Below the pieces are notes generated by a model. The model was not told the origin of the DNA. It worked only from the letters and a program-made list of their open reading frames with translations, and ran no database searches. From contig JBDRKW010000006.1 of NCBI GenBank assembly GCA_043813585.1, forward strand, positions 15,444 through 79,443: a DNA stretch of 64,000 nt. The letters run 5' to 3'. The translations under genes were made by a program, and so were the position numbers. This DNA is from Candidatus Kerfeldbacteria bacterium (lineage in GTDB: Bacteria > Patescibacteriota > Patescibacteriia > UBA9570 > XYC2-FULL-38-9). Every line of letters begins with the position of its first letter. Position 1 is the stretch's first letter. Positions 2,858 through 35,917 of the stretch are shown here, one piece after another.

Positions 2858-4456
2858 TTATTTCTTGAGCGGCCGTTTCTTGTTCACCGGAAACGGATTC
2901 CCAGACAGCGCCATCACTGCATACGCCGTGTTCAGCACTTCGTTACTGTCTGCGCCAAGTAAATCATACTTAAACGCTCCACCACTGCGCGCCAGCGAAT
3001 CCAGGTAATGAAACCCATTCAGATTATTTGTGGTCATTGATTTTGCTTCCTTGCGTTTTGCCCGCAAACCCTGCAATACCCATGCTGTTGATGATGCATT
3101 CGAGGTTGCGTCAACGCCATACCCCCAGCCGCCGTCAGGATTCTGTTGTTGGCGCAGGAACGTCGTCGCATTCGTAATTTTCTGCGTTAGTGATAAACCA
3201 TGTTTGTCCTTTTCTCCTTTGAGCCTGGACGCCATGTTAAGCCAAGCCGCTGTGGTATCAATGTCAGACGCGCTACCAACGGCAAACGATACGCCGCCGT
3301 CATCATTAATACAGGCAAACGTCGCTTCCGCGCCCTGCTTTAATTTCTTCGAATCATACGGCTCATCGGCCGCAATCATCGCCAGCACCGCAAAAATATC
3401 GTCATTGCAGTACGCCGCATCGCCAAACTGCTCGCCATCCATTGTTTTCTTCAAACGCTTCACAAAATTCGCCCCGTTATAATGCCGCGCATCTTTGCCA
3501 ATCGCTTCAAGCGCCATAATATGCCGGGCAAGCTCTGCAGTTCCCTTCTTCGCCATCGGACGGTACTGCTTCACCGCGCGAAACATCCGTTTATCATTCT
3601 TGCCACCAGCCTTCAACGCCATAGCCGACCATTCGGTCAATGCAATGCTGCCAGACACTTTACCGTTGTCATCAATATTTCTCTTCAGGTACTCCACACC
3701 ATTTTCCACCAGCTGCTTTCGCTTATACCGGCCCAGCGAATGGTACTTCTTTACTTTTGTGTAGATGCGAAGCGTCTTTATGTCGGTCTTCGGGTAGCCC
3801 TCTCGCACTGCATACACACTATAGGTTCCCGTCGCGTTTGGCTTGAATATTGCTTCGCCGTTGACATCTGTTGTAACCGTCGTATTCCCTATATGAACTT
3901 CTGAATCGCCGGCCGGTACATATGTACCGCTACCGGCTACCAAGTCATATTCATAATAATCCACAGTGGCGATAACGGTTCCGCCTTCACGCCGATGCTG
4001 TGCATTCAGTTGCAAGCGCAGCGGGGGGTTTGAAACGCCGTAGGTTAGAATAACCTCATCGCCCGGCTGCAGTGCAAAATCATTCATTCCGACTGACGGG
4101 CTCTCATAATTCACATAGTACAGCCAATAGTTCGAGTAATCGCCTGCATACGAATCGATCGAGCTCAGGAAAAACCCAAAACCATCCCAGTATGTTACCT
4201 CATATTCAAACTCACCCATCAACGATGCCGCATGCAACGCGCATAACGCATTCGCTCCGTCCACATGATGCTCTGTGCCTGTTGAATCTTCCACGTCGCA
4301 GCCACCGTCGGTAATATACACTGTTCCGTCATAAACCGTTGCATCGTTTGCTTCTATGCGGACCACCGCATCAACATACGTCGTTGCCGCAGCCGGCAAT
4401 GCAAACACCAGCGCCGCGCCTCCGATAAATAATAATGAAGTTACCATTCGTTTCAT
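2858..4456 (-). CDS. secreted protein with an N-terminal DUF4430 (BtuG/transcobalamin beta-like) domain, an Ig-like domain and a C-terminal alpha/alpha-toroid (prenyltransferase/terpene-cyclase-like, QQNPDGGWGY) domain
   Basis: Signal peptide MKRMVTSLLFIGGAALVFALPAAA. DUF4430-like motifs YWLYYVNYESPSVGMNDFALQPGDEVILTY. PFTA/SQHop-like repeat QQNPDGGWGYGVDATSNASSTAWVLQGL. An alternative start at 4489 would overlap the upstream gene by 25 nt. Confidence 0.6.
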   Translation of the reverse strand: MKRMVTSLLFIGGAALVFALPAAATTYVDAVVRIEANDATVYDGTVYITDGGCDVEDSTGTEHHVDGANALCALHAASLMGEFEYEVTYWDGFGFFLSSIDSYAGDYSNYWLYYVNYESPSVGMNDFALQPGDEVILTYGVSNPPLRLQLNAQHRREGGTVIATVDYYEYDLVAGSGTYVPAGDSEVHIGNTTVTTDVNGEAIFKPNATGTYSVYAVREGYPKTDIKTLRIYTKVKKYHSLGRYKRKQLVENGVEYLKRNIDDNGKVSGSIALTEWSAMALKAGGKNDKRMFRAVKQYRPMAKKGTAELARHIMALEAIGKDARHYNGANFVKRLKKTMDGEQFGDAAYCNDDIFAVLAMIAADEPYDSKKLKQGAEATFACINDDGGVSFAVGSASDIDTTAAWLNMASRLKGEKDKHGLSLTQKITNATTFLRQQQNPDGGWGYGVDATSNASSTAWVLQGLRAKRKEAKSMTTNNLNGFHYLDSLARSGGAFKYDLLGADSNEVLNTAYAVMALSGNPFPVNKKRPLKK

Positions 4457-4464
4457 CTCTGTGT

Positions 4465-5184
4465 TTATAATGATTTTTCGTACGACCATTTTACCGAGTC
4501 GCCTTTATTTAACATTTTTGATGAAATGCCTACAGTCGCCTTCTGTCCATTCACGTAATAAATCCAAAACATGCCGGCATGCAGGTCTTCCTCTAATCCA
4601 TTGATTGCTTTTACATAGGAACCCATTCCTCCAAATGAGGAAGCCGTGTAAATAAAGCCCTTGCTCTTCGCATTCTTCATTAACTGCTCGACTGATGCGC
4701 CGGTGTTGATATCTGCCGTATAGGTTGCCGTCCCAGACGGTGTAACCACCTGCAGCGTTGCAGCATACACCTGCTGCTCCGGTGCTTTTTCCTCCTGCTT
4801 TTTCTCTTCCTTCTGTTCCTGTGCAACTTCCTCGACTTCCTCCGGTTCGGCTTCCAGGTTCGCTTCCTCCGGATCAGCTGCGCCTTGTTCAGGTCCCGCC
4901 GATGTTGTAATGGTTGGCGCATTCTCTTCCGGCTGTTCACACTCCTCTTCAACGGCTTCCTTTACTACTGCATTACTGTCTTTTTTTATCTTTTGATCCT
5001 GTTGTTCCGCAACTTCGTTTACAACGCCTGCTTCAGCGCCCGCAACGACAGACTCGTACGACTGGTTCGCGCCGGCCTGCTGCATTTCATAACCGTTGTC
5101 ATTCACAGATGGGCATGCACCGCCAAGAACAACCGCTGCTGATAGTGTCAGGCCGATAATAATGGTTGTCGTTCGTGTAAACAT
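4465..5184 (-). CDS. secreted/lipoprotein with a C-terminal DUF4430 (BtuG-like cobalamin-binding) domain and an acidic low-complexity linker
   Basis: N-terminal TM/signal ending in a Cys (LGGAC). A Glu/Gln-rich linker. C-terminal FIYTASSFGGMGSYVKAINGLEE...GMFWIYYVNGQKATVGISSKMLNKGDSVKWSY matches DUF4430. Confidence 0.6.
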   Translation of the reverse strand: MFTRTTTIIIGLTLSAAVVLGGACPSVNDNGYEMQQAGANQSYESVVAGAEAGVVNEVAEQQDQKIKKDSNAVVKEAVEEECEQPEENAPTITTSAGPEQGAADPEEANLEAEPEEVEEVAQEQKEEKKQEEKAPEQQVYAATLQVVTPSGTATYTADINTGASVEQLMKNAKSKGFIYTASSFGGMGSYVKAINGLEEDLHAGMFWIYYVNGQKATVGISSKMLNKGDSVKWSYEKSL

Positions 5185-5197
5185 AGTTGTTGAAACA

Positions 5198-5395
5198 AAA
5201 AACCCGCAGACAATGCAGGCGCGGGTGACGATTCGTCACGGGACTCGCATGCTTTTTGCTCGAAAGCGTTGTCGCGATAGCAAGCGGCCTGGCTTACCGT
5301 CTTCATGACGACGGATTACAGTTGCGGCACAGCTCCGGATTCACACCGGATTCCCTTGCTGCCCCATCTACCGGGGCAAGGCATAATTTTTTAAG
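5198..5395 (-). promoter_or_regulatory. cobalamin riboswitch (aptamer plus terminator expression platform) in the 5' leader of the DUF4430 operon
   Basis: The minus-strand RNA contains UGCCCCGG..GGGGCA, AAGGGAAUCCGGUGUGAAUCCGGAGCUGUGCCGCAACUGUAA, hairpin CCGUCGUCAUGAAGACGG and AAGCCAGGCC. It is followed by a CCCGC..GCGGG hairpin plus U6 ending about 15 nt before the ATG at 5184. Confidence 0.75.
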
Positions 5396-6824: not shown

Positions 6825-6948
6825 GAAGCATTCACACGCCAACAACAACTCCTTCGTCCAACGAAGGGTTCTTGGTACTGGAGGCTATAACTAGAGGGAC
6901 CTAAACGAGAGGGCATGGCGAACGAACGGGCCATGCAAGGAGGTGCTT

Positions 6949-8394
6949 GTGAAGCACTTTACAACGACAATGGTGATCTTCGCGGCCGTGCTGGTTTCGG
7001 GATGCGACAACGGGGATGACATCCTCTTCCCGAACGGCATCGGCGGTGGCGACGACGACAGTTTCGAGTGTGTTGCGTCCATCAGCGACGTGTCCGTGCG
7101 TACGCATCCGGACAACGCGCTGGCGTTCTACGCGAGCTGGACCACGCCCGAACCGGCGTCCTCCCGCGTGGAGTTCGGCCGGGCCGATGACGGCCTGGAC
7201 TTTGTCATCGAGGATGACAACAAGGTTACGGACCACGAGGTCTTCGTCTTCGGCATGAAGCCGGAAACGGAGTACATGTTCGCGGCCGTCTCGATCATGG
7301 ACAGCGGCGAGGAAGCATACTGTTCAGAAGAGCTGGGCTTCACCTCCGGCACGGTTCCGTTTGCCGGCGCCGACGCCGAGGTGACGGTCTACGACAGGGA
7401 GCTGGCGTACCACGGATGGACGCTCGGCAACTTCCTGATGGCGGACAACCAGCAGTCTGCCTGGATGGTCATCTGGGACATGGACGGCGACCCGGTCTGG
7501 TACTACGACTACGGGCTCACCGAGGGACGATCCGACCAGGAGGTCACGCTCGTATACGACGGTGACAAGCCGCGGATCCTGATAGGCGGCGGCGTCAAGA
7601 AGAACGAGCCGGCCACGGAGCTCGACCTGGAATGGAACGTAACCTGGGAAGGCCCGGTCCAGTCCGACGGCATGGGCACCGAAGGCGACATGCACCACTG
7701 CATGCACCGGACGTCCACAAACAACTACGTCGCGCTGTTCCACGCCTGGGAGGACTCGAGCACCCACACCGAAGTCCGCGAGTTCGACCGCGAGCTCAAC
7801 GTGCTCTGGAGCTGGATGCTCTACCAACACACCGATTGGGACGGTTACGACATGGGCAACCACGTCATCGTCGACTACGAGGACGACGCCGTCTACTACA
7901 ACGAGCAGCTGTCCAAGGGCTTCTACAAGATCGACCGATCCACCGGAGAGGTGATCTGGAAGCTCGGCGAAGACGGCGACTTCGAGGTCATCAACAGCAA
8001 GAGCGATGAGGACTTCGGGTACTTCACCCACGCGCCTGAGCTGTTGCCGGACGACCGCCTGCTCATCTTCCACAACGGAAGCGACCAATCGGGTTCGGCA
8101 GCCATCGAATGGCAGCTGGACTTCGGCGCCATGACCGCGACCGCGATCTGGTCGTGGAACGGCGGCGAAGACGACGGCTGGTACAACTATTGCTGGGGCG
8201 ACGTGGACCGCCTTCCCAACGGCAACACGCTGGTGACCGCCGGAACACCCGACCCGCCCAACCGGGAACCCCGCCTCATGGAGGTGGCTCCGGACGAGGA
8301 GCTCGTCTGGGAGCTCCGGATATACGACACCGACCCCGACTTCAAGGGGTCGTATATGTCGGAGCGCATCCCCGTGCTGGTCGGCGAGAAGTGA
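6949..8394 (+). CDS. lipoprotein, probably an arylsulfotransferase-like beta-propeller protein. The gene is high-GC and compositionally atypical for the window.
   Basis: GTG start 5 nt after the AAGGAGG SD. Lipobox LVSGC. Codon usage is very GC-rich, and the opposite strand carries the artefact ORF 7324..8088. The ASST assignment is tentative. Confidence 0.45.
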   Translation: MKHFTTTMVIFAAVLVSGCDNGDDILFPNGIGGGDDDSFECVASISDVSVRTHPDNALAFYASWTTPEPASSRVEFGRADDGLDFVIEDDNKVTDHEVFVFGMKPETEYMFAAVSIMDSGEEAYCSEELGFTSGTVPFAGADAEVTVYDRELAYHGWTLGNFLMADNQQSAWMVIWDMDGDPVWYYDYGLTEGRSDQEVTLVYDGDKPRILIGGGVKKNEPATELDLEWNVTWEGPVQSDGMGTEGDMHHCMHRTSTNNYVALFHAWEDSSTHTEVREFDRELNVLWSWMLYQHTDWDGYDMGNHVIVDYEDDAVYYNEQLSKGFYKIDRSTGEVIWKLGEDGDFEVINSKSDEDFGYFTHAPELLPDDRLLIFHNGSDQSGSAAIEWQLDFGAMTATAIWSWNGGEDDGWYNYCWGDVDRLPNGNTLVTAGTPDPPNREPRLMEVAPDEELVWELRIYDTDPDFKGSYMSERIPVLVGEK

Positions 8395-9170: not shown

Positions 9171-9731
9171 ATGAAAATCTACACAAAAACCGGCGACACC
9201 GGCGAAACAAACCTCCTCTGCGGCGCGCGCATCACAAAGGCGCACCCGCGCATCGAAGCGTACGGCACGGTGGACGAGCTGAACGCCTGCCTCGGCATCG
9301 CAATCGCGGACGGGCGCGAACGCAACACCGGTATCAATGTGGAACGGCTGCTGCGGCCGATTCAGCGGGAACTCTTTATTATCGGCTCCCACCTGGCAAC
9401 GCAGTGCGAACCGAGCACCATGTCCAAATCCATCCCCCCGCTCAAGGACGACGCGGTCCAGCACCTGGAACATGAAATTGACGAGCTATCGGAGTCGCTG
9501 CCCCCGCTGAAAAACTTCATCCTGCCGGGCGGCACGACAACCGGCGCGCACCTCCACCTCGCGCGGACCGTTTGCCGCCGCGCCGAGCGGGCTGTCATCC
9601 GCCTTTCCCAAAATGAAGAGATACCGCCCATCATGGTGCGGTACCTCAATCGATTGTCTGATTACTTGTTTGTGCTCGCCCGCGCGGTCAACGCGGACCA
9701 GGGCGCTTCCGAAGAAACCTGGGAAGCGTAG
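9171..9731 (+). CDS. PduO-type ATP:cob(I)alamin adenosyltransferase
   Basis: N-terminus MKIYTKTGDTGETNLLCGARITKAHPRIEAYGTVDELNA is typical of the PduO/MMAB family. Confidence 0.8.
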   Translation: MKIYTKTGDTGETNLLCGARITKAHPRIEAYGTVDELNACLGIAIADGRERNTGINVERLLRPIQRELFIIGSHLATQCEPSTMSKSIPPLKDDAVQHLEHEIDELSESLPPLKNFILPGGTTTGAHLHLARTVCRRAERAVIRLSQNEEIPPIMVRYLNRLSDYLFVLARAVNADQGASEETWEA

Positions 9732-9745
9732 CCAACTCGTCCGGT

Positions 9746-12079
9746 CTAAGGCCAGTAGTCAACCGCCGGGACGATCCCGCCCTGTGAAACCGACAAACCG
9801 CGGATCAGGTCGTCTTTCTGTCCGTCCGTATTCTGCACGCGCACGGTGTACCGGCCGGCCGGCATGGACTGAATGGGCATCTCCACCACGATGCGGGTTG
9901 AAGAAATGACATAGGTATTTACGGCGTTGTACGGGCCGATCTTCGCCGTTATCCCGTGGCGGAAATCCGAACCGTAGACGTCCACTTTTGCGTTCCCGCC
10001 GCCAAACCATTCTTTTCCGATAAGGCCGGGTGAAACGAACGACAACGCCGGGGCCGGATCGGTATAAGGCACGTTTCCGCGGATATCAACCGAACGGATC
10101 ATATCATTCCACATATCGGCGACCAAAACCTTGTTCTTCAGACCGAGCATGCCTTTAGGATTATTGAACTTGCTGTCGGTGCGGCTGCCGTTCTGAAAAC
10201 CGCGCGCGCCAGAACCGCTCACCAGTTTCGTCACCTTGTTCGCCCGGTCGATCGCGCGGATCCGGTTGCTGCCGACCTCGGAAACGTAGAGATGGCCGTC
10301 CTTCCCCCGCTCAATCCATTCCGGATACGAGAACAGCGCCTGGTCCAGGGTCGCATCCAGGTAGCCGTTGCTGCCGGTGCCGGCAAACGTCGTCACCTTC
10401 TTCGTCTCCAGGTTCAGCCGGCGGATGCGGTGGTTGTCGCGGTCCGCAATATACAGGTATTTTCCGGACTTGCTGCGCGTGATGCCGATCGGCGCGTGGA
10501 ACTTCGCGCTCAGCGCATCGCCGTCCGCATACCCGGCAGCTCCGGTGCCCGCAATCGTCTTCACCTTGCCCTTGTTCGGACCGATCAGCGTCACCCGGCG
10601 GATCACATTATTACCCGCATCCGTCACAAACATGAACTTGCCGTTGCGCGAGCGCACCGAACCCATCGGCCCGCTGAAATACGCGCACCCGGATTCGCCC
10701 GTGTCAAATTCGTTCTTGCACGGCATGCCGTCCTGCAGGTCGTTGTAGTTGGACGAATGCATGTTGATCTTTCCGGCGCCGGTCAGGTATTTCGTTTCGC
10801 CGGTGGCGATCACCACTTCGCGGATCCGGTTGTTGTTGCGGTCAACCGCAAATATCTTCTCGCCGTTTTTCGAAACGACAAACGACGAGATGTCGGAAAA
10901 CCGCGCATTCTCTCCGTAGTAGGATTTCTTGTCATCAGCATTATAGTTGTCGATCACATTGCCTGCGATCACTTTTGACGATTTCCCGCCCCGCTTCATC
11001 TGCCGCAGGCGGTTGTTCTCGGAAAAATATATCTTTCCCTTGTCCTTTGACAGCCGCATGAACTTCGGCCGTCCGACCAACACCGGTTTTTTCTTCTTTA
11101 CGTTGAACCGGTTCTTGCCGGCGAACTTCTCGTTCACGTTCGCGTCGCTTAGCTTGTACTTCTGGATAATGCCGATTCCGGTTGAAGCAACATACAGGTA
11201 ATTGCCGTAGTGCGTCAGCCCGCGCGGGTAGTTGATCGAAACCATGTTCTTGTCCGACGCAAAGGTGGAAACGGTACAGCCCGAAAGGTCAATCTTGCGG
11301 ACATAATCGTCATACCCGTTCCCGTCGCTCACATACAGCGTATTGTCGTCCGTCAGGTGCACGCCCCACAGGTTGTTGAACGTGGCGCTGCCGCAGCCCC
11401 CGTCCTTATGGCCTTCCGACCCGGTTCCGGCAATCGTGGTTATGGCGGTGGTGTTCAGGTTCACGCGCTTGACCTGGTGCGTGCCCGCGTTGGCAATATA
11501 CGCGTATTTCCCGTCGCTTGTGATGGCCAGTTTCTTCGGGTTGTTCAGAGAACCGGAGATGTTCGTCACGGCCCCTCCGTAAATGGAAACTTTTTTTAAT
11601 TGATTGTTGCCGGTGTCCAGGAAATACACCCAGCTGCCGGACACGGCCACGCCCTGCGGCTTGTTGAGCCCGCTCACAACCGTTGTCACATATCCGTCCT
11701 TGATCCGCTTGATCTTGCCGTTATCCGTATCAGCCACAAAAATCATGCCGCTGCCCTGGGCCACGCCGGCCGGGAGCGCAAAACGCGAGCTGCCTGATGA
11801 TCCGTTCTGGTCGCCGTACGAGCCGTTGCCGGCGATGGTTTTTACCTTGCCGGTGCGGGTGATGCGGCGGATGACGTTGTTATAGGTATCGGCAATGATA
11901 AACCCGCCTTTAGAATTGACGGTGATATCTTCCGGAAAGTCGAAATACGCATTCAGCGGGGCTTTGCCGTCACCCCAATAGATACGGCTCTTGTAGGTTG
12001 TCGTGTCGCCGTACGCGGCATGCGCAACGATCGGCAACAGCAATGCGGCAATGAAAACCGCGATGGCTTTGCGAAACAT
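9746..12079 (-). CDS. secreted NHL-repeat protein with a C-terminal IPT/TIG domain
   Basis: Signal peptide MFRKAIAVFIAALLLPIVAHA. Repeated YVADxxNxRIRR-type NHL blades. C-terminal Ig-like IPT domain (TVRVQNTDGQ). Confidence 0.65.
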   Translation of the reverse strand: MFRKAIAVFIAALLLPIVAHAAYGDTTTYKSRIYWGDGKAPLNAYFDFPEDITVNSKGGFIIADTYNNVIRRITRTGKVKTIAGNGSYGDQNGSSGSSRFALPAGVAQGSGMIFVADTDNGKIKRIKDGYVTTVVSGLNKPQGVAVSGSWVYFLDTGNNQLKKVSIYGGAVTNISGSLNNPKKLAITSDGKYAYIANAGTHQVKRVNLNTTAITTIAGTGSEGHKDGGCGSATFNNLWGVHLTDDNTLYVSDGNGYDDYVRKIDLSGCTVSTFASDKNMVSINYPRGLTHYGNYLYVASTGIGIIQKYKLSDANVNEKFAGKNRFNVKKKKPVLVGRPKFMRLSKDKGKIYFSENNRLRQMKRGGKSSKVIAGNVIDNYNADDKKSYYGENARFSDISSFVVSKNGEKIFAVDRNNNRIREVVIATGETKYLTGAGKINMHSSNYNDLQDGMPCKNEFDTGESGCAYFSGPMGSVRSRNGKFMFVTDAGNNVIRRVTLIGPNKGKVKTIAGTGAAGYADGDALSAKFHAPIGITRSKSGKYLYIADRDNHRIRRLNLETKKVTTFAGTGSNGYLDATLDQALFSYPEWIERGKDGHLYVSEVGSNRIRAIDRANKVTKLVSGSGARGFQNGSRTDSKFNNPKGMLGLKNKVLVADMWNDMIRSVDIRGNVPYTDPAPALSFVSPGLIGKEWFGGGNAKVDVYGSDFRHGITAKIGPYNAVNTYVISSTRIVVEMPIQSMPAGRYTVRVQNTDGQKDDLIRGLSVSQGGIVPAVDYWP

Positions 12080-12159
12080 AAGCGATGGTTTAATGGTTTG
12101 TTTTATTCACTATGCCACAGCAGGAGCGATTTGTAAAAGCATTTTTCAGATAAAAAAAC

Positions 12160-12200
12160 GAGACCGGGGCCGGCTTCGTGCGATTGATGTGATCTCTCGC
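12160..12200 (-). terminator. rho-independent terminator at the 3' end of the high-GC island
   Basis: Minus-strand RNA CGAAGCCGGCCCCGGUCUCG + U7. Confidence 0.5.
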
Positions 12201-12248
12201 TCGAAGCCGACCGCCGGTCGCTTGCCAGTCTTTGGCTACACCGCGGTA

Positions 12249-13898
12249 CTACCAGTACCGCGGACACTCGCTTGGGTCGATGCCGGGCCCCGGAGCCGCA
12301 CCGCTCGCGCACCGCGCCAGCATGTCCACCCTGTTGGTGAGCACGTTGGCGTTCCCGGTGAACGTCGAGCAGGCTCCGATGATGTCGGTCGCGGTCCCCA
12401 CCACGAAGGTGTTCGTGGGACCGTACGTGTTCCGGAGCTGAATCCTCTGCTCACCGGCCCACTTCCCCGAGGGGTTGTGGTCCAGCGTGGTGATCTTCCC
12501 CGAAGGGATGTCCACCACCGGTCCCGACATCTGGTTCCCGTACATGTCCCGACGGACCACTCGCATCCAGTTGCCCTGCCCCTCACGGATCGAGATCCGG
12601 TTGGTGCCGTTGGGCAGCTGGGTGTTGCCGCAGATCCCCACGTAGATGGGGTCCCCGCCGTCGGCCGCCATCTGCAGGTCCGCCCGCCCCACGTCCGCGG
12701 TCTCCCCCAGTCCGAGGGCGACCACGTACGGAAACGTTGCGTCCCTGCTCATGACGTACTCGACATCGCCGGCCTTGAACCCCCCGTAGAGGGCCATCAG
12801 GACGACCGTCAAGATTCCAATGCCTCCGAAGAGGAGAACGGCAGAGAGAAGCCATTCACTCTTCAGGGATCCGACTCCGATGAGCAGCAGCAGTACCGCG
12901 ACCGTGGCGAAGAACCAGGGGCTCTTCGTCATGCTGCCGCGCGAGTCCGGAGTCGCGCCCGCTGCCTGCTTCAGCACCTGGGCACCCGTTGCCACGACCT
13001 TGTCGGCCGTGGTGGAGACCGTCGGGGATCCGCTGCTGCTTCCGCTTCCGCCGTTCTTCTTCTCCTCCAGCTCCTTCTCCACGGTGGAGATGTACTCGGC
13101 AGGGTTGTCCCCGATGCGCACGCCGTGCTCCACCCAGGAGTCCATGGTGGCCTGGTGCTTCTCATCGTACTGCTGGTAGCGCACCACACCCCCGTTGCGC
13201 TCGCTCTTCTTCGACACGCGAATGCCGATGAAGGTCGGGTCACCGCTGGGGATGGTGGGGTGGTAGCGGCAGCCTTTTCCCAACCGGCCGATGTTCACCG
13301 GGTGTGCGGTATCCGTGATCTCGTCCAGAGACTCACGGGCGTAGGGGCTCACGTGGGGGCAGATCGCCACCGTCTTCTCGCCGGTCCAGGGGTTCATGTA
13401 CTGCGGGACGAGCAAGCCGTCCACAGCCGAGAAGCCCCCGACCAGGACAGAGATGACGACGAACGACCAGATGGCCACTTTGGGTGCATCGGCCACGAGC
13501 TTGAGCCAGAGGCTCGCCGCAACCGCCACACCCACCACGCCGATCGGGATAGTCGCGACCCGGAGGATCAGCGGCCATTCGAACACCGTCATCAACCACG
13601 TGATCGACCGGAACATCATCCAGTCGACCACCACGAGCACCCACAGAACCAGCAGGATGTTCCCGACCTTCTTCAAGGTCGGGGCCTGCATCTTGATGTA
13701 GAGCCCGTAGATGAGACCGACGATGCCGAGGTACCCGACCGACAGGATGATCGTGCCCAGGGTGATACCCACGGGCAGGCCGATCATCTGGGAGGTCAGC
13801 GTGATGACGTAGAAGAGGGTCGCCAACAGGCCGACCAGGACGGAGGGAATGACGTACCAGAGGTGCGCCTTGCACCAGGTTTTGATCTTGTTCAACAT
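12249..13898 (-). CDS. large polytopic membrane protein of unknown function inside the high-GC island. Cys-containing extracytoplasmic domains.
   Basis: 549 aa. About 6 N-terminal TM helices plus a central TM pair. Realistic amino-acid composition, whereas the overlapping + strand 1003-aa ORF is R/G/P/H-rich artefact. Confidence 0.6.
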   Translation of the reverse strand: MLNKIKTWCKAHLWYVIPSVLVGLLATLFYVITLTSQMIGLPVGITLGTIILSVGYLGIVGLIYGLYIKMQAPTLKKVGNILLVLWVLVVVDWMMFRSITWLMTVFEWPLILRVATIPIGVVGVAVAASLWLKLVADAPKVAIWSFVVISVLVGGFSAVDGLLVPQYMNPWTGEKTVAICPHVSPYARESLDEITDTAHPVNIGRLGKGCRYHPTIPSGDPTFIGIRVSKKSERNGGVVRYQQYDEKHQATMDSWVEHGVRIGDNPAEYISTVEKELEEKKNGGSGSSSGSPTVSTTADKVVATGAQVLKQAAGATPDSRGSMTKSPWFFATVAVLLLLIGVGSLKSEWLLSAVLLFGGIGILTVVLMALYGGFKAGDVEYVMSRDATFPYVVALGLGETADVGRADLQMAADGGDPIYVGICGNTQLPNGTNRISIREGQGNWMRVVRRDMYGNQMSGPVVDIPSGKITTLDHNPSGKWAGEQRIQLRNTYGPTNTFVVGTATDIIGACSTFTGNANVLTNRVDMLARCASGAAPGPGIDPSECPRYW

Positions 13899-13964
13899 TT
13901 CGGTATCTCCAGGCCCGGGAGCGATTGCAGCCGCCCCCGGGCATCAGTGTTGTCGTTCTGCGTT

Positions 13965-15086
13965 CTACTTGTTGTCCTTCGAGCCGGAGCCCGAGGACGA
14001 CCTGCTGCTGATCCAGGCCTCCGCGAGCGGCCGCAGGAGCGTTCCCGCGGTCGCCACAGCGGCCACCATGTTCTTGCCGGCCGGGTCCAGTCCCGCGCCG
14101 ACCTTGTTGACGACGGCCGCGGTCTCGGTAGCCGTTTCGCTGGCGGCCGACTGGATGGCCTTGGTCTTGATCCTGGTGACCTCGAGGCCGTAGTCGCGGA
14201 GGTCACCGTTGAGGAGCTGCTTCGCGTGGCTGTTAATCCGCGCGAAGTTCTCCGGGGTGTGGTGGCCGGAGTCGGTGATGATCTCCGCCCCATCAGCGCC
14301 CAGCCGGGTCAGACCGACGTTGTAGGCCGGCCCGAACAACTGCTTCACGACGTCCACCGGCTTCTTGTCGAGCCGGGTCAGCAACTGCTGCGCGATCTTC
14401 TCGTCCACCAGACCGCTGTCGGAGCGGCGGACGCGGTAGTAGACCACGCAGTCAACCTTGTACGACTCACCACCGGGGTTGACGGTGATGGTGAGCTCGA
14501 TCTGCTTTTCGGACAGGTCGATGTCGGCGTACGGCATCATGAAGAGGGGCAGCCCGATAGCCACCTGGCCGGCGCCCATGCCGTTGACCGTCCATCCGCC
14601 TTCCGAGTCGATTCCGCCAGTCAAGACGTTTCGGAACACGCGGACCTGATCGGCGGGCAGCATCCGCAAGTGGCTCTTGCCCCTGGCGTCGGACACGATC
14701 TCGCTCGTGATGAGCGTCGTGTCCTCGCCGCTGCCGGTGGTCGGGGTCGCGGAGCCGCTGCCGCTCTTCTCCGACTTGTCGCCCTTGCGACCGAAGAAGA
14801 GGTAGACGGCCAGCGCTCCGGCCGCGATGAGGCCGAGCAGCAGGACGATCAGACCGAGGATCCAGCTCAACGCGCCCGTGAGCGCGCTGAGGATGACCAC
14901 CGCGTTGATGCCGATGGTGACCAAGACCTTGCGCTTGGTCGTCCACCAGCTGTCGCTGCTCTCGGTGGGCGGGGTGGGGGCGGTCGGCGGGGTTCCGCCG
15001 GTCGAACCGGTTGAGGTTGCGGGGGCGCTGGAGGGCGTGGTGACGCCCATGTCCAGCATGTCGATTCCCGAGTGGTCGATTTCCAT
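13965..15086 (-). CDS. SPFH/band-7-like membrane protein with S/T/P/G-rich termini, inside the high-GC island
   Basis: Single N-terminal TM. The core ...IELTITVNPGGESYKVDCVVYYRVRRSD...DYGLEVTRIKTKAIQ resembles the SPFH fold. The assignment is tentative. Confidence 0.45.
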   Translation of the reverse strand: MEIDHSGIDMLDMGVTTPSSAPATSTGSTGGTPPTAPTPPTESSDSWWTTKRKVLVTIGINAVVILSALTGALSWILGLIVLLLGLIAAGALAVYLFFGRKGDKSEKSGSGSATPTTGSGEDTTLITSEIVSDARGKSHLRMLPADQVRVFRNVLTGGIDSEGGWTVNGMGAGQVAIGLPLFMMPYADIDLSEKQIELTITVNPGGESYKVDCVVYYRVRRSDSGLVDEKIAQQLLTRLDKKPVDVVKQLFGPAYNVGLTRLGADGAEIITDSGHHTPENFARINSHAKQLLNGDLRDYGLEVTRIKTKAIQSAASETATETAAVVNKVGAGLDPAGKNMVAAVATAGTLLRPLAEAWISSRSSSGSGSKDNK

Positions 15087-15711
15087 TTCGAACTCCCTTT
15101 TCTGTGTTCGACCCGGTCGCTTGCGCGCCGGGAATTCTGTTCAGTGGTTCGGGTTCTCGTGACCTAATGTGTCAGAAATGCCCAATGCCTTTGTATTGGT
15201 AGTTTATTGTATAGCCTAGACTGTCAAAGTTCGCCGTTTGTCTTACTGCGTTCCGCGCAAAAAGCGCAAATCGCAGAAGAGGACGAACGGTGAATCGTGA
15301 AGTCAAAAATTTGACCGCACCATTCACGGTTCGTTCCAAAAAGAGAATCCTCCCTCCATATATTGTAGGCAAGTCGAATCTCTCTCCCCGGTTTTGAATG
15401 TACTCTCTCCGTCATTAAATGACCCAAAATATTACACCAAAACAACACATTTGTCAAGGGTACGAACCGGCTCCAAACGTACCTTTTGAACGAAAAAAAA
15501 TACGCTAACATAAGCAAAAAACATCCATAGAAGAACAAACGCTCCTTGCCGGCAACATATGCTGCGCGCGCTCCATACGATAACCACCGCCCAACAGACC
15601 AACCGCAATCCGAGCTCTCAACGTCGACCGCGTCACTAACAAAAAACGGGAACCCATTGTTCCACGCTTTTTCCATGTTCCACTTTTTTCCGGCCTTCGC
15701 GTCAAGACCTA

Positions 15712-17565
15712 TTACTCGGTCGCGTCGGGCGGAATCTGCATATAGTTCACCAGGTATTGCGCCATATCGCTAAACACCGGCGCAGCTGAAGCGGCCGACC
15801 ACAACACGTCCTTTGGTTCGTCAATCTTCACCAGAATCACGAACTGCGGGTCAGACACCGGCCCGTACCCCACAAACGTATCTTTATGCCGATTCGCGTC
15901 ATACCCTGCACCGTTCCCTTTTGGAATCTGTGCCGTTCCGGTCTTGCCCGCCATGTGGTAGCCGTCCACCTCTGCCAGGATGGCATGCCCGCCTTCCACC
16001 ACGCGCACGAGCATGGCGGAGATCGTCCGCGCAGTCGGTTCGGACAGCGGCTGCCCCGCCACGACCGGTTCGGTTTGTTCCTGGTATCCGTTTGACTTTA
16101 CCACGCGGTCAACAACGTACGGCTTCATCATTGTACCGCCGTTTGCGAGCGACCCGAACGCCTGGATCAGCTGCATGGGCGTGACGGTCAGCCCCTGGCC
16201 ATACGACGACGTGGCGCTGTAAATATCGCGCTCCTTTGCAACGCCGGAGATGTCTCCGCTTTGTTCGCCGTCCAGTTCAATCCCGGTCGCCTTCCCAAAG
16301 CCGAAGTTCCTCACGTAATCATGCCACTTCTCATTGCCGACCTTCTGCACCACAAAAATCGAACCGGTGTTCAGCGAGTCCTCCAGCACCCTGGTCATGT
16401 CCACCACGCCGTTGGCTTTGCCGTCCGAATTATGGATCGTATACTGGCCGATCTCCACAGAACCGGTATCTTCATAGGTCGTGTACGGGCTCACTAGGTT
16501 CTCGTTAAGGCCGGCTGACATGGTAAACGACTTGAACACCGAGCCCGGTTCGTACTGATCCGCGATCGCATCATTAATAAACACCTTGATGTCTTCGACG
16601 TCCCCGTAGTTATTCGGATCCCAAAGGGGCGCATTGCAGAGCGCCTTTATCGCTCCGGTGGAAGGGTCCATCACGATCATCGTACCCTGGTTTGCGCTGT
16701 GCTTCTCTACTGCCGCAGTGATCAGCGAACAGGCCTTGTACTGGATATTCTTATCAATCGTCAAAATGAGCGTATCGCCGTCTTGTGCTTCCACAATTGA
16801 TTTTTCACCGACCGCGATAAACCGGCCGGATGCATCCAGCTCTGTCGACAGCGAACCGGCCTCCCCGGCCAGCCGGCGGTTGAAATACCCTTCAAGGTTA
16901 TACTGCCCACGGCGCTGCTCATCGACAAAGCCCACAAAACCGGTTACTGACGAGGTGACGTCTCCCTCCGGATAATAGCGCGTTTCCTCCGGCGACCAGT
17001 GGATGCCGTCCAGTGCCTGCTCTTCAATGACCTTCTCGAGCGCTTCCAGTTCCTGGTCAGATACCTGATGCTTCAGCGGTTCATACACGTCTTCGGGCTT
17101 GGTCAGGCGCGACAACACCACTTCCGGATCCATCCCCAGAATCGGCGCTATCGCATCAGCCGTTTTCTGCGCATCCAGAACCTGCCTGGGGTTCGCATAC
17201 ACGTGCTGCAGCGTCCGGTTCGTGGCAATCATCGTAATGCCGGAATCGGCATAGTCATCCTTTGCATAGATCTCGCCGCGTTCCGGCAGCAGCTGCTTTA
17301 CCAGTTCATGCTGCCCGCTGGCCAGCGCCGCATAAAATGAATGGTCGAGAACCTGGATGATAAACAGCCGCGCGGACACCAAAAACCCTGCCAATACGAA
17401 CACCCCCATCAGTATCTTCAGCCGGTCAGCATCGACAAGTGCCGAAAACCGCGAATCGGATCCGTTTCCGCCGCGCTTTGCCCGCGCATTCCGCGCGCCG
17501 CTCTTCCGTGTTGTTGAATAGAATCGATTCATAGCCGGAGCGTACAAAAAACATGCCGTTTGCAT
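15712..17565 (-). CDS. ftsI: penicillin-binding protein 2 / FtsI-type peptidoglycan D,D-transpeptidase
   Basis: N-terminal TM, a PBP dimerisation domain and a transpeptidase domain. It sits in the dcw cluster downstream of ftsL. Confidence 0.8.
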   Translation of the reverse strand: MQTACFLYAPAMNRFYSTTRKSGARNARAKRGGNGSDSRFSALVDADRLKILMGVFVLAGFLVSARLFIIQVLDHSFYAALASGQHELVKQLLPERGEIYAKDDYADSGITMIATNRTLQHVYANPRQVLDAQKTADAIAPILGMDPEVVLSRLTKPEDVYEPLKHQVSDQELEALEKVIEEQALDGIHWSPEETRYYPEGDVTSSVTGFVGFVDEQRRGQYNLEGYFNRRLAGEAGSLSTELDASGRFIAVGEKSIVEAQDGDTLILTIDKNIQYKACSLITAAVEKHSANQGTMIVMDPSTGAIKALCNAPLWDPNNYGDVEDIKVFINDAIADQYEPGSVFKSFTMSAGLNENLVSPYTTYEDTGSVEIGQYTIHNSDGKANGVVDMTRVLEDSLNTGSIFVVQKVGNEKWHDYVRNFGFGKATGIELDGEQSGDISGVAKERDIYSATSSYGQGLTVTPMQLIQAFGSLANGGTMMKPYVVDRVVKSNGYQEQTEPVVAGQPLSEPTARTISAMLVRVVEGGHAILAEVDGYHMAGKTGTAQIPKGNGAGYDANRHKDTFVGYGPVSDPQFVILVKIDEPKDVLWSAASAAPVFSDMAQYLVNYMQIPPDATE

Positions 17566-32563: not shown

Positions 32564-33874
32564 TTAATCTGTATTTTCCAGATCCTCAAGCACGATATCC
32601 CATGCGTCCGAAGCGACCGGTTCCGGCCGGCCATGCGACGGAAAGGCATGCATATCAATATAGGGCAGGCTGTTGGCCTCGAGCACTGCGCATTCCTGGC
32701 CAGTATGCGGCTGATTGACCTCCGGACAGATAAAATCGATCCCAACCAGGTTCGTCTGCAGCAATCGGGCAATGTCCAAAAATAATTGAATATTCTCCGG
32801 ATGCACATCATCGATGACATTCACCACGTCCGCCCCCTGGGACAGGATATGTTTGGGCTGAAGAAGAACCACCTGACCCACGTCTGGAACAGAATCGAGG
32901 TTCAGCGCCTGTTGCGCGAGCTGCCGCTCCAGCACGTCGTCAAGCGGTATTTCAAACAGCGTGACGTTGGGTTGTCCCCTTTTTCCGCGGCGTTCGTCGG
33001 CATTTTTTATCTCAACCAGTTGCCGGATGGTCGAGTCGCCATCGCCCACAACATTTGCCCGGTCGCGGCGGCACACATATACCTTCCTCTGCCCGATGAC
33101 TGTCGCGCGGTACAGCGGCCCGCGTATAAACCGCTCCACGATAATATCCGGGCGGTACGCGCGGCAATCGCGGATCGCGCGTGCGAGTTCCTCTTCTGAA
33201 TTGATATCGACAAACGTGTGGCAACTTAATGAACCGCCGTTCGGCTTAACGACCAGTGGAAAACCAAGATGCATCCCATAATTATAGGCGCGGCGTGCTG
33301 TGTAGAAGCGTTTCCCTTCTGCCACCGGAACCGCGTGATCGGCCAATAATTTTTTCATTCGAAATTTGTCGTCCACATTAACAATCAGTGGATCACGGAT
33401 TTTTAACGGAATGCATTCATAATGGTGGCGCCTGCCGTTTGCGAATAAGACATACTCGTTCATCGGTCTGCCGAAAAACGTCAGTGCGCGTACATCCAGC
33501 TGCCTGCGCTGCGCTTCCCGGAAAAAAATGAGGCTCCGGTTGAGGATCTTCTCTTCATCCACGTCGCGCGCCAGCCGAATCACGGTCAATTTAGAAAGCA
33601 CAAAAACAGCACCGCGTCCTGCCAATGACGACAAATTCCGCATCGGCGTACGCGCCGCAAAACGAGAAACCGCCTCAAAAGGAACCAGCATATGGTCAAC
33701 CATAAAATCAATGCGGGCATGGAGATGCGTCCGCCGCTTTGTGGGCAGGCAATGGATGCAGTATTTATTTTCCATAGCTGTAGGATACACGAAAAATTGA
33801 TTGGCGCCAGGGTAAAAAAAATCGGCATGCCTGTCCTCTGCAGTTGCATGCCGTACCGGTATCGTTCTGCGCAA
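32564..33874 (-). CDS. ATP-grasp protein resembling the N-terminal half of cyanophycin synthetase (CphA), without the Mur-ligase half
   Basis: VVKPNGGSLSCHTF...VVGDGDSTIRQLVEIKNADERRGKRG...DVVNVIDDVHPENIQLF...GIDFICPE aligns with the CphA ATP-grasp domain. Confidence 0.6.
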   Translation of the reverse strand: MRRTIPVRHATAEDRHADFFYPGANQFFVYPTAMENKYCIHCLPTKRRTHLHARIDFMVDHMLVPFEAVSRFAARTPMRNLSSLAGRGAVFVLSKLTVIRLARDVDEEKILNRSLIFFREAQRRQLDVRALTFFGRPMNEYVLFANGRRHHYECIPLKIRDPLIVNVDDKFRMKKLLADHAVPVAEGKRFYTARRAYNYGMHLGFPLVVKPNGGSLSCHTFVDINSEEELARAIRDCRAYRPDIIVERFIRGPLYRATVIGQRKVYVCRRDRANVVGDGDSTIRQLVEIKNADERRGKRGQPNVTLFEIPLDDVLERQLAQQALNLDSVPDVGQVVLLQPKHILSQGADVVNVIDDVHPENIQLFLDIARLLQTNLVGIDFICPEVNQPHTGQECAVLEANSLPYIDMHAFPSHGRPEPVASDAWDIVLEDLENTD

Positions 33875-33889
33875 TTCGTGCAGGCCGTC

Positions 33890-35917
33890 CTACCGGTGGA
33901 CGAACTGGGCCTTGACCCGCGGACCGTTCGTCACGAAGTTCGTGAGGCCGATGATGTGATCCTTGGTCTCACCACACCTACCGGACGCCTTGGCTTCCTC
34001 CATGAGGCCCTCCGCGAGCGGTTTCTCGATGCCGCGCATCACCACGCCCACCAGGATGTCGTCGATGGCCCGCGAGCGATGCCCGATGTCTACCTGCAGC
34101 GGCGCGTCCGGGATGAGGCTCGGCTTCACCGGCCTGGCGTCCATCGGCTTCATCTTGAAGGTGGACGCCCCGTGGGTCAGGATCATCTCCCTGGCCCACT
34201 TCATTGGATCCAGGTTGATGGCGTCGGCCCACCCATATTCCAGTGCGGTAACCGCGCCGATCGCCACGCCCGCGCGGAGCATCTGGAGCGCGCGATCCAC
34301 GCCCACCAGCCGCGGAAGTCGCTGGGTGCCGCCGTACCCGGGAATGATGCCCAGGTTGACCTCGGGCTGGCCGATCGCGGCGTCCGTGCTGATGACGCGC
34401 TTCCAGCACGCCATCGCCATCTCCGCGCCGCCGCCGAGGCAGAGCCCCTTGACCACGGCCACGACCGGCTTGGACATGGCTTCGATCTGGAGGGTCAGCA
34501 GCTGGCCGGCGCGTGGGAACTGCGCCATCTCATCGGGCTTCCCGCGCAGGTCCGCCAGCTCGGTCACGTCAGCTCCGGCGAGGATGCCGTTGAAGCCGGT
34601 GAAGATCACGCCCTTGACGGAATCGTCGCCATCGAGCTGCTTGAAGGCCATCGAGAGCTCCAGGATGGTCGCCGCGTTGAGCGGGTTCACCGGCGGCCGG
34701 AACACGGTCACGGTCGCGACACCGCTACTGTCGACGTCCACCTTGACGTTCTTGTAGACCTGCGGCAGCTGGCCGTCATCCGGAATCCTGTCGCTCTCGA
34801 ACAAGGCGGGCGGTTCGTAGTTGATGAACCCGTCGTTCACGGCGGCATCGAACCAATCGAACAGGTTGGCCGCACCGGCGTGGCTCATCATCTCCACTAC
34901 GCCCTTGTTGAACGCGAGCGCAGTGCGGGAGATCCAGTTCAGGTCGAACGCGCTGACCACGCCCTTCTCGAGCAGGTGCAGCGCCAGGCCGGCGAGGTAG
35001 GCCTTGCACACCGACGCGATCTTCTCGTACATGACCCCGTCGATCTGCTCGTCCTCCTCCGAGGCCTCCCGATGGTTGTACCACGGCGTCGCGTCCTGGG
35101 CGCGCATCATCGCGGTCATCGGATCATGGAGGCCGAACAGCCCGGTCTGCGCCCAGTACTCCAAGCACTCAGCCGTGAGGTTGTTCGCGTTCGGGATGAG
35201 GATGTGAACCAGGAACACCCCGCCGCCGCCGATCTCCCGATTGAGGACGTTGTTGACCTGGCGAGGCGTGCCCCAGTTGGCGTTCACGAGTCCGCACGCG
35301 CAGTCCATCATCCCGCAGAACAGGATGTTGCCCGCAAACAGCGGGCTGTCCGCCACGTGCACCGGCACCTTGCCGAGCCGGCGCAGCGTCTCGTCCGCAC
35401 GCGCAGTCATCTCGGGGTTCCGGGACGCCGTGAGCTCCATGACCGGATTCTTCCACGCCGGGAAGAACGGGTGCATAACGAAGCACCTCTCCTTGTACAT
35501 CGAGTCGCGCGCGATCTCGCTGCACGGCAGCGACGACGTCGTGAACCCGATCAGGCAGTCTGCCGGCACCAGCTCCTCGGTCTGCGCCAGGATCCGCCGC
35601 TTGAGCTCCAGGTTCTCGGTCGCGGCCTCGATCACCAGGTCGAAGTCGGTTCGGCTCTGCGGACCGCCCTTGAGCGAATCGCTGAACTCGAAGCACGACA
35701 GGATTTGCGACTTCACCGTCGCCGACATCTTCCCGCGCGCGTGGCCCTTCTCGGCTAGCTGCAGGATCTCCTTCTTGGCCGACTCAAGCACCCTCGCGTT
35801 GATGTCCGCGAGCACGACGCAGCAGTCGCCCTTGAGAGCCGTCGCGAACGAGTACGCCAGCCCTCTGCCGATGGATCCGGCACCGATGATTCCGATCAAA
35901 AACTCTTTCTGTATCAC
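33890..35917 (-). CDS. bifunctional 3-hydroxyacyl-CoA dehydrogenase / enoyl-CoA hydratase (FadB/FadJ-like, dehydrogenase domain first). High-GC gene.
   Basis: NAD-binding IGIIGAGSIGRG, HPFFPAWKNPVMEL motif, crotonase VAVVKGLCLGGGAEMAMAC. The opposite strand carries a 688-aa R/H/P-rich artefact ORF. Confidence 0.75.
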   Translation of the reverse strand: MIQKEFLIGIIGAGSIGRGLAYSFATALKGDCCVVLADINARVLESAKKEILQLAEKGHARGKMSATVKSQILSCFEFSDSLKGGPQSRTDFDLVIEAATENLELKRRILAQTEELVPADCLIGFTTSSLPCSEIARDSMYKERCFVMHPFFPAWKNPVMELTASRNPEMTARADETLRRLGKVPVHVADSPLFAGNILFCGMMDCACGLVNANWGTPRQVNNVLNREIGGGGVFLVHILIPNANNLTAECLEYWAQTGLFGLHDPMTAMMRAQDATPWYNHREASEEDEQIDGVMYEKIASVCKAYLAGLALHLLEKGVVSAFDLNWISRTALAFNKGVVEMMSHAGAANLFDWFDAAVNDGFINYEPPALFESDRIPDDGQLPQVYKNVKVDVDSSGVATVTVFRPPVNPLNAATILELSMAFKQLDGDDSVKGVIFTGFNGILAGADVTELADLRGKPDEMAQFPRAGQLLTLQIEAMSKPVVAVVKGLCLGGGAEMAMACWKRVISTDAAIGQPEVNLGIIPGYGGTQRLPRLVGVDRALQMLRAGVAIGAVTALEYGWADAINLDPMKWAREMILTHGASTFKMKPMDARPVKPSLIPDAPLQVDIGHRSRAIDDILVGVVMRGIEKPLAEGLMEEAKASGRCGETKDHIIGLTNFVTNGPRVKAQFVHR

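Follow-up and report, generated by a model that had tools for sequence, protein, structure and literature searches.

A clade-restricted SPFH-like two-gene operon with a conserved, coding-limited excess of G/C-ending codons in Candidatus Kerfeldbacteria

The 64,000-nucleotide stretch of Candidatus Kerfeldbacteria DNA analyzed here (the window; assembly GCA_043813585.1, contig JBDRKW010000006.1; 53.4% GC) harbors, behind ftsI on the minus strand, a pair of genes designated gene A and gene B, which encode a putative SPFH/Band-7 protein and a predicted polytopic membrane protein and are written almost exclusively in G/C-ending codons. A sequence-only reading of the window had interpreted the pair as a horizontally acquired membrane module, mainly because of its atypical composition. 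By comparing the locus with its relatives, it was verified that the pair belongs to a discrete cassette present in the same slot in five lineages of one small clade, that its two proteins diverge fast, and that its excess of GC at third codon positions (GC3) is conserved among these lineages and limited to the coding sequences. We consider, with a probability of roughly 60%, that this cassette is a clade-restricted, vertically inherited two-gene SPFH operon of one Candidatus Kerfeldbacteria subgroup, in which the two coding sequences keep up their GC excess, which is no sign of recent transfer.

Anatomy of the cassette

Along the minus strand, the genes are ordered mraZ, rsmH, an ftsL-sized open reading frame (ORF), ftsI, a 625-nt spacer, gene A, gene B, a terminator and a gene for a secreted NHL-repeat/TIG protein (the NHL gene), beyond which a cobalamin adenosyltransferase (CobAT) gene and truB are found on the other strand. 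Gene A (13965..15086, minus strand) encodes a protein of 373 aa that is 100% identical to ABIG66_01585, a hypothetical protein from a Candidatus Kerfeldbacteria metagenome-assembled genome (MAG) at NCBI, on a contig of 219 kb, and gene B (12249..13898, minus strand) encodes one of 549 aa; both ORFs, as well as the plus-strand ORF at 12003..15014 considered further below, were recovered just where the sequence-only reading had drawn them. Each gene is preceded by a GGAG-type ribosome-binding site located 8-10 nt 5′ of its ATG. The 66-nt spacer that separates them (13899..13964, minus strand; GC 0.64) contains two in-frame stops and, 10 nt before the gene B ATG, the GGAG of this gene. The SPFH gene comes first and its partner lies downstream on the same strand, with one promoter and one terminator for both, so arranged that promoter, leader, gene A, gene B and terminator form a discrete unit of 3.6 kb, the cassette, flanked by ftsI and the NHL gene.

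The ftsI-gene A spacer (15087..15711, minus strand) had been described as an AT-rich non-coding border of 625 nt. Its length is exactly that, but its GC of 0.47 is only mildly low relative to the window mean of 0.534, and it holds a conserved promoter and leader. The promoter (15421..15457, minus strand), revealed by a consensus scan, is of the σ70 type, with a –35 TTGACA at 15457-15452, a 17-nt gap and a –10 TAATAT at 15434-15429, followed by the conserved GGTCATTT. Spacer alignment demonstrated no variation in these two boxes or in their flanking bases among the window and the related loci L003, L005 and L007, which have in common the motif TTGACAAA-N7-TTTTG-N3-TAWTNT...GGTCWTT. This extended motif is found once in the window even when 3 mismatches are allowed (0 expected), is confined to pair-bearing loci among the 132 loci compared, and was not found by a pattern search of viral contigs.

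Between this promoter and gene A extends a 5′ leader of ~335 nt (15087..15420, minus strand), which presents conserved blocks in the alignment, including a conserved CTTTGACAGCTGA box. The counterparts of promoter and leader were located at 8428-8644 in L003, 7880-8286 in L005 and 1083-1465 in L007, with leaders of 175-365 nt; the spacers upstream of gene A in these relatives are 319-483 nt long and present a background-like GC of 0.44-0.46. About 100 nt downstream of the promoter, RNAalifold predicts for the window, L005 and L007 together a long hairpin (15281..15337, minus strand) with an 18-pair stem, 4 pairs of which are kept by two-sided changes, a signal that with just three sequences is no more than suggestive. 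The inner part of the hairpin was flagged as terminator-like, and a stretch rich in pyrimidine/U comes after the hairpin (CTTTTTTGCG in L005). The hairpin may be an attenuator or the end of a small RNA, and the region as a whole could represent a new attenuator, riboswitch-like leader or small RNA; the spacer and leader had no Rfam match at E <= 1.

At the opposite end of the cassette, the terminator that had been placed near 12160..12200 was confirmed as an intrinsic terminator of the operon (12152..12219, minus strand), composed of a GC-rich hairpin at 12162-12219 and a UUUUUUU tract at 12152-12158. Its predicted folding energy is –48.4 kcal/mol (z = –4.95), and none of 200 shuffled sequences folded as well. 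A comparable hairpin followed by a T-run precedes the NHL gene in L003. In the window, the promoter scan revealed a separate promoter-like site for the NHL gene at 12137-12109.

An abrupt compositional change such as the one seen at this locus could also be produced by an assembly or binning chimera joining a foreign GC-rich fragment, and a fragment of gene B was indeed found in a 'Planctomycetes' MAG. The chance of such an artifact is practically negligible, as an independent assembly contains a 2184-bp contig that matches window positions 11041-13224 with 99.95% identity and runs from gene B across the terminator into the beginning of the NHL gene, and the same arrangement was observed in four other lineages from other samples. 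This contig (L001: GCA_018814795.1, JAHIZD010000086.1) is the one binned in the 'Planctomycetes bacterium' MAG, and several contigs of the same synteny that clearly belong to Patescibacteria, L007 and L008 among them, carry the label 'uncultured Gammaproteobacteria'; both names look like binning or labelling errors in public records.

Distribution and divergence of the pair

Relatives of the pair were sought by comparing gene B exhaustively with 1.84 billion representative proteins in HMMER, and by scanning GTDB genomes and JGI metagenomes with an alignment of NHL orthologs, followed by local HMM searches. The gene B scan retrieved only five relatives: a partial copy of gene B itself (100% identity), P0003 (E 5.5e-54, 37% identity), P0004 (E 2e-12, 27%), P0005 (E 1.5e-10, 28%) and P0006 (E 1.4e-4, 26%); P0007, a further listed match (E 6.2e-4), covers a 47-residue stretch only. 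Three of the five are placed in the same syntenic slot, another is carried by a contig of 1.8 kb that gives no context, and the last is a fragment of the organism studied here that was put in the wrong bin. Word-index searches with full-length A, full-length B and the gene A core returned self or near-identical sequences only, low-complexity words being a limit of this index. The NHL-based scan added the pair-bearing locus L007 and further copies of the L005 lineage (L009, L088 and L111).

It was thus verified that the A-B pair occupies the slot mraZ-rsmH-ftsL-ftsI-A-B-NHL, with CobAT and TruB encoded opposite, in L002, L003, L005/L088 and L007, so that, including the window, the pair is conserved in the same slot in five lineages, which settles the neighborhood comparison that the sequence-only reading had proposed. 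A Peptidase_M24 gene separates ftsI from the cassette in L005/L088. The loci L087 and L089/L106 present the same synteny without the pair, the ftsI stop being separated from the NHL start by 62 nt in L087 (6910-6971) and 30 nt in L089 (9944-9973); these empty-slot genomes are much GC-poorer (GC3 0.23-0.40). Among ~35 more distant Patescibacteria loci, whose NHL proteins are 37-47% identical, neither the pair nor the ftsI-NHL adjacency was found. The empty slot in L087 and L089 indicates a single gain of the pair, within this clade or at its base, and possibly also a single loss. In neighbor-joining trees the empty-slot lineages form one clade with 82-93% bootstrap.

The products of the pair diverge much more than those of the genes around it. 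Between lineages, the identity is 19-33% for gene A and 16-34% for gene B, in comparison with 56-65% for NHL, 58-65% for FtsI, 57-64% for TruB and 51-57% for CobAT. The pairwise E values of the gene A orthologs range from 6e-34 (window against L002) to ~1e-3-6e-3 (window against L003). The window and L002 are sisters both for NHL (98% bootstrap) and for the pair (33-34% identity).

The predicted proteins

The gene A product presents a low-complexity N-terminus rich in S/T/P/G, a hydrophobic stretch at residues 52-100, a low-complexity linker, a domain at ~125-315, helices within 314-362 and an S/G/K tail. The sequence-only reading had assigned it a single transmembrane (TM) segment. A hydrophobic anchor is present at that place, but the stretch, delimited by KRK and GRKGDK, has 49 residues and is long enough for a two-helix hairpin, which it probably is rather than one TM helix, with both protein ends in the cytoplasm. 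Two C-terminal helices are predicted (314-330 and 335-362), and the layout of anchor and C-terminal helices is the same in all five orthologs. Against Pfam Band_7 (PF01145), gene A scored 14.8 bits (E 0.03, residues 210-314), below the 23.6-bit gathering cut-off; the L003 ortholog scored above it (30.4 bits, E 4.8e-7), L002 reached 16 bits and L005 13.1 bits, and L007 had no match, so that four of the five family members match Band_7 in the same region, in agreement with the SPFH-like nature ascribed to this protein from the outset. Moreover, a Foldseek search of the PDB with the gene A model returned SPFH-fold proteins (stomatin, HflK/C, prohibitin, flotillin and vault) as 34 of the 35 top matches, with a best E value of 4.7e-4 and TM-scores of up to 0.58 on isolated SPFH domains, the model being of low confidence. 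Sequence and profile searches of the PDB gave nothing relevant. From its sequence features, gene A is best described as a very divergent SPFH/Band-7 protein, with a predicted membrane anchor, SPFH domain and C-terminal helices.

The gene B product is predicted to have five N-terminal TM helices, a soluble region at ~166-323 (~158 residues), two further TM helices at ~324-374 and a beta-rich C-terminal domain at ~385-549 (~175 residues). Cys423 and Cys510, in the C-terminal domain, are invariant in the family, and Cys180 and Cys210, in the first soluble domain, are common. Given a basic N-terminus inside the cell, both soluble domains most likely face outward. As had been anticipated, gene B belongs to no recognizable family: searches against Pfam, NCBIfam, PHROG and PADLOC were negative, and neither its sequence nor a profile found a counterpart among the PDB sequences, from which the family profile retrieved unrelated TM segments only at E <= 10. 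The model of the C-terminal domain gave only weak jelly-roll/beta-sandwich matches in Foldseek (E >= 0.02) and no OB-fold. Gene B would therefore represent an orphan family with ~7 TM helices.

In the main SPFH subfamilies, operons with a conserved partner are the rule (Hinderhofer et al. 2009, PMC2636767), and the locus resembles pairs such as YbbK-YbbJ (= QmcA-YbbJ), FloT-YuaF, YqiK-YqiJ and HflK/C with FtsH. Gene A shares with the SPFH members of these pairs a predicted anchor, a putative Band_7-like domain and predicted C-terminal helices, differing in that the window copy falls below the Pfam cut-off (14.8 vs 23.6 bits). It is likewise found in an operon with a polytopic membrane partner, whose soluble, beta-rich C-terminus follows hydrophobic helices. 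The usual partner NfeD has 140-150 aa, three hydrophobic stretches and, at its C-terminus, an OB-fold beta-barrel, and also exists fused to a ClpP-type protease (PMC2636767). The partner gene lies here downstream of the SPFH gene and not upstream of it. Gene B resembles NfeD in sharing an operon with an SPFH gene, a pairing conserved here in five lineages, and loosely in the succession of a hydrophobic segment and an all-beta domain. The identification of gene B as NfeD was nevertheless rejected on sequence, size and architecture: none of six gene B family members matched NfeD (Pfam PF01957) at E <= 1, the family profile hit no NfeD structure in the PDB, and the protein has 549 aa, ~7 TM helices (5 + 2) and two soluble domains with conserved cysteines, which probably lie outside the cell. 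The locus is, on these comparisons, a probable SPFH operon with a novel partner and an unusual evolutionary signature.

By analogy with known SPFH proteins, gene A would oligomerize on the membrane as an anchored scaffold, and this oligomer could confine or regulate the operon partner, the two proteins possibly forming a complex. The exposed outer domains of gene B would evolve fast, as expected for a surface component of an episymbiont facing hosts or phages. The position directly behind ftsI may point to a link to the envelope or to division.

A conserved GC3 step that is not a trace of recent transfer

The GC contents of the first, second and third codon positions are 0.58/0.49/0.92 in gene A and 0.57/0.45/0.89 in gene B, the first two being also slightly raised. 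The median GC3 of the 49 genes in the window is 0.64, which gives robust z values of 3.6 (gene A) and 3.2 (gene B), and the segment 12001-15000 is the top tetranucleotide outlier of the contig in 3-kb windows (z = 5.15 after GC normalization, 4.2 raw). The GC3 and tetranucleotide analysis suggested with the sequence-only reading therefore bore out its view of the pair as a GC-rich outlier. At third positions, the base frequencies of the pair are 0.04 for A, 0.06 for T, 0.50 for C and 0.40 for G; Asn, His, Tyr and Gln are encoded exclusively by their G/C-ending codon, AAG accounts for 93% of Lys and GAG for 82% of Glu. Genes for DnaK, DnaJ, GrpE and GAPDH, whose identities were confirmed, present codons like those of the bulk of the genome (GC3 0.64-0.73), and the pattern of the pair is therefore not an ordinary expression-linked codon bias; ordinary translational selection was ruled out on this ground. 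The codon pattern of the pair is a preference for G/C as such.

The excess is conserved across the five lineages. GC3 values for gene A and gene B are, respectively, 0.92 and 0.89 in the window (flanks 0.64), 0.94 and 0.97 in L002 (flanks ~0.71), 0.64 and 0.74 in L003 (flanks ~0.42), 0.87 and 0.87 in L005 (flanks ~0.39), and 0.91 and 0.97 in L007 (flanks ~0.42). The pair thus ranges from 0.64 to 0.97 and stays 0.24-0.50 above flanks that vary from 0.39 to 0.71, or from 0.23 to 0.71 when the whole clade with its empty-slot lineages is considered. In 40-codon windows, GC3 changes in one step where the coding sequences begin and end, and neither ftsI nor the NHL gene shows a gradient; in L007, for example, it is 0.95-1.00 in gene B and 0.23-0.53 in the NHL gene located 97 nt downstream.

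A recent horizontal acquisition from a GC-rich donor, whose composition would not yet have been ameliorated, could at first sight account for the strongest compositional outlier of the contig, for codon usage like that of GC-rich genomes, for the sharp borders and for the slot being empty in L087 and L089. It is, however, very unlikely when the comparative data are considered. Orthologs are found in the same slot in four other lineages at just 16-34% protein identity, which places the insertion before a divergence deep enough to saturate synonymous sites, and the flanks shifted between GC3 0.39 and 0.71 over the same span, a wide range that implies ample time for synonymous sites to re-equilibrate. 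By this amelioration argument, a composition inherited from a donor cannot explain the conserved excess. In addition, no donor was found among the 1.8e9 proteins of the gene B scan or in phage, plasmid and viral sets. Homologs of the pair were absent from viral contigs, searched by promoter pattern and by protein, and from phage and plasmid records, searched by tblastn; no integrase, no tRNA within 25 kb, no flanking direct-repeat family above chance and no PHROG or PADLOC match was found as a signature of mobility. The host-like GC of the non-coding leader is a further point against a recent import.

Consequently, the step from atypical composition to transfer taken by the sequence-only reading does not hold, given the syntenic orthologs in L002, L003, L005/L088 and L007, a kind of finding that this reading had itself named as its refutation. 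Its broader proposal of a horizontally acquired module survives in a limited form: a discrete, clade-specific cassette with sharp borders, whose site is empty in a related clade, fits an old gain, but the gain was not recent and has no known donor. Like horizontally acquired islands, the cassette is a discrete block of atypical composition with sharp borders, its own promoter and terminator, and presence/absence variation. Unlike them, it has no integrase, tRNA, repeat or mobility gene and no donor that could be found, it is ancient and syntenic, and its atypical composition is restricted to the coding sequences and conserved instead of decaying.

The antisense reading frame

The plus strand opposite the pair carries an ORF of 1003 aa (12003..15014, plus strand), with GC contents of 0.86/0.48/0.58 by codon position and no Pfam match. 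A gene on this strand, kept open by selection with the GC3 bias of the pair as a consequence, is a highly improbable alternative. It is true that the codon-register antisense frame has only 0-3 stops per gene in all five lineages, and that in a pooled test CTA, TCA and TTA were rarer than the other A-ending codons. This pooled contrast was, however, driven by GGA and GCA. Box by box, all NTA codons are depleted, including ATA (0/237), whose complement is not a stop, and TCA (3.1%) matches GTA, CCA and ACA (2.0-3.9%). An open frame requires the avoidance of just three codons and not of every A/T-ending one, and the ORF presents no family match and a mirror-image composition. The antisense frame is open because all NTA codons, ATA included, are missing; the 1003-aa ORF arises from the biased codon choice in genes A and B and is no gene, as the sequence-only reading had held when it assigned the real genes to the minus strand.

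A related effect is seen in the public annotation of L005 (GCA_002790455.1, PFVE01000039.1), where the gene B ortholog is annotated with 383 aa, its ORF having 537 aa (9539-11149) and including the TM domain, and where a 181-aa opposite-strand 'gene' (9467-10012; GC 0.91/0.38/0.53) is the shadow ORF of this ortholog. The annotation at 9467-11152 is probably wrong.

What maintains the GC excess

The leader was co-inherited with the genes and yet is not GC-rich, so the force that raises GC acts on the coding sequences. The same host-like leader GC argues against a regional mutation bias, against conversion tracts centered on the locus, and against the cassette having been imported recently, as a whole, from a GC-rich genome.

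GC-biased gene conversion at a recombination hot spot, with the pair as a hypervariable surface-protein locus, was considered in this context. According to Lassalle et al. (2015, PMC4450053), GC3 is raised in the recombining genes of many bacteria, for the most part by G/C-ending codons that are non-optimal, and particular core genes have an excess of such codons, in which they resemble the pair; the pair differs from what is described there in that its excess of 0.24-0.50 GC3 concerns two adjacent genes, is bounded by the coding sequence and is conserved across deep divergence. In favor of this explanation, the pair is fast-evolving, uses all G/C-ending codons and has slightly raised GC1 and GC2. 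Against it, the GC3 step of 0.24-0.50 stops exactly at the coding borders and does not bleed into ftsI, the NHL gene or the leader; for a divergent cassette to be exchanged, conversion tracts have to terminate within the conserved flanks, which should then be the most biased part. The GC3 differences that set recombining genes apart from non-recombining ones are, moreover, reportedly far smaller than the step observed here. Taken together, gene conversion appears a doubtful explanation, one that we would put at little better than one chance in ten.

Recurrent allelic replacement would produce the same pattern if the coding part were repeatedly swapped through recombination in the conserved flanks, the source being an unsampled GC-rich pool, such as GC-rich Kerfeldbacteria or an element. 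This would account for the step-like borders, for the codons like those of GC-rich genomes with C3 ~ G3, for the very low identity between lineages and for the A-B spacer, which is GC-enriched in three of them. The explanation is nonetheless rather unlikely, as even the most GC-rich lineage (L002, 62% GC) has a pair 0.24 above its flanks and no sampled genome is at equilibrium with it, the pair is accompanied in its inheritance by a conserved AT-rich promoter and leader, pair and flanks agree at the one resolvable node (window and L002), and an exhaustive protein search with gene B revealed no further pool.

By elimination, it would be most likely that GC3 is held high, lineage after lineage, by selection that favors, at synonymous sites, G/C-ending codons or a GC-rich mRNA. 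The selected property could be a match to a tRNA subset, the stability or structure of the mRNA, or the avoidance of A/U-rich targets. A more specific proposal, that the near-exclusive use of G/C-ending codons is a selected heritable property, kept throughout the existence of the clade while host GC3 drifted between 0.39 and 0.71, is put forward as a tentative idea that stands at about one chance in four.

Several observations weigh against the view of a vertically inherited SPFH operon whose coding GC is maintained. In the four-fold boxes, C-ending and G-ending codons are about equally used in the pair, and C3 ~ G3 looks like a general GC pressure and not an adaptation to specific tRNAs; it would also be expected for the coding sequence of a GC-rich genome. 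The GC of the A-B spacer ranges from 0.43 to 0.64 across lineages and is 0.58-0.64 in three of them, which a purely codon-level force does not predict. Regarding the proteins, the AlphaFold2 (AF2) model of gene A, built from a single sequence, is poor (pLDDT 48.7), the fold assignment of gene A leans partly on an ortholog, and the AF2 model of gene B, built from a 5-sequence alignment, is of low confidence (pLDDT 47.7). The weakest links between gene A orthologs lean on synteny and shared architecture. In the neighbor-joining replicates, finally, the empty-slot clade is basal in 32% and sister to L003 in 49-57%.

Flanking genes and other features of the window

The upstream flank of the cassette is ftsI (15712..17565, minus strand; GC3 0.69), which encodes a class B penicillin-binding protein with Pfam Transpeptidase and PBP_dimer matches and is the last gene of the mraZ-rsmH-ftsL-ftsI block. 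The downstream flank is the NHL gene (9746..12079, minus strand), which encodes a protein with Pfam NHL and TIG matches and has a GC3 of 0.76, somewhat above the window median. This protein is conserved in many Patescibacteria at 37-65% identity (window and loci L010-L043); outside the small clade studied here, it has ~1100 aa and its gene does not adjoin ftsI. Within the ftsI-gene A spacer, an ORF of 150 aa (15224..15676, minus strand; GC 0.42/0.46/0.50 by position) had no significant Pfam or PHROG match and no equivalent in the relatives, and its overlap with the conserved promoter and leader makes it improbable as a gene.

The GC-rich island is not unique in the window, as two other genes share the GC3-rich, all-G/C-ending codon table of the pair: one for an arylsulfotransferase-like lipoprotein (6943..8394, plus strand; GC3 0.87) and one for a FadB-like 3-hydroxyacyl-CoA dehydrogenase/enoyl-CoA hydratase fusion (33890..35917, minus strand; GC3 0.91), the latter unusual for a genome of the candidate phyla radiation (CPR). 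The FadB-like gene also casts a 688-aa antisense shadow ORF (33692-35758, plus strand). No orthologs of either gene were found among the related loci compared. Another locally GC3-rich gene for a secreted protein was observed in L003 (17362-17964, minus strand), where a MopE-like copper-binding protein is encoded with a GC3 of 0.71 against a background of ~0.42; its distant homolog in L087 has a GC3 of 0.25. Elsewhere in the window, a cobalamin riboswitch (5266-5391, minus strand; Rfam RF00174, 43.1 bits, above the gathering score) was identified upstream of the minus-strand genes 4465-5184 and 2858-4489.

Significance

The literature searched described neither this locus nor persistent GC3 islands in Patescibacteria. 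The case is a warning for annotation, since strongly atypical GC3 and tetranucleotide composition, a classic criterion of transfer, belongs here to an old, syntenic, vertically inherited operon, and the antisense ORF of such a block has probably already given rise to a wrong gene call in a relative (L005). A coding-limited GC3 of 0.9-1.0 across genomes of varied GC is not easily accounted for by mutation bias, amelioration or GC-biased gene conversion as it is known. If the tentative proposal of a selected codon property were true, it could serve a codon-based expression program, in which a C34/G34 tRNA subset would be used under particular conditions, or the production of a GC-rich mRNA that is nuclease-resistant or strongly folded, and the pair would exemplify, in nature, strong selection that acts on the synonymous sites of specific genes and is unrelated to ordinary expression-level bias, in the reduced genome of an episymbiont and on an SPFH scaffold with a new kind of partner.

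For the cell biology of CPR bacteria, a divergent SPFH scaffold together with a new, fast-evolving and probably surface-exposed partner, encoded behind ftsI, is a candidate for a role in the organization of the envelope or in the contact with hosts or phages, in hosts of the cassette that are themselves abundant groundwater bacteria.

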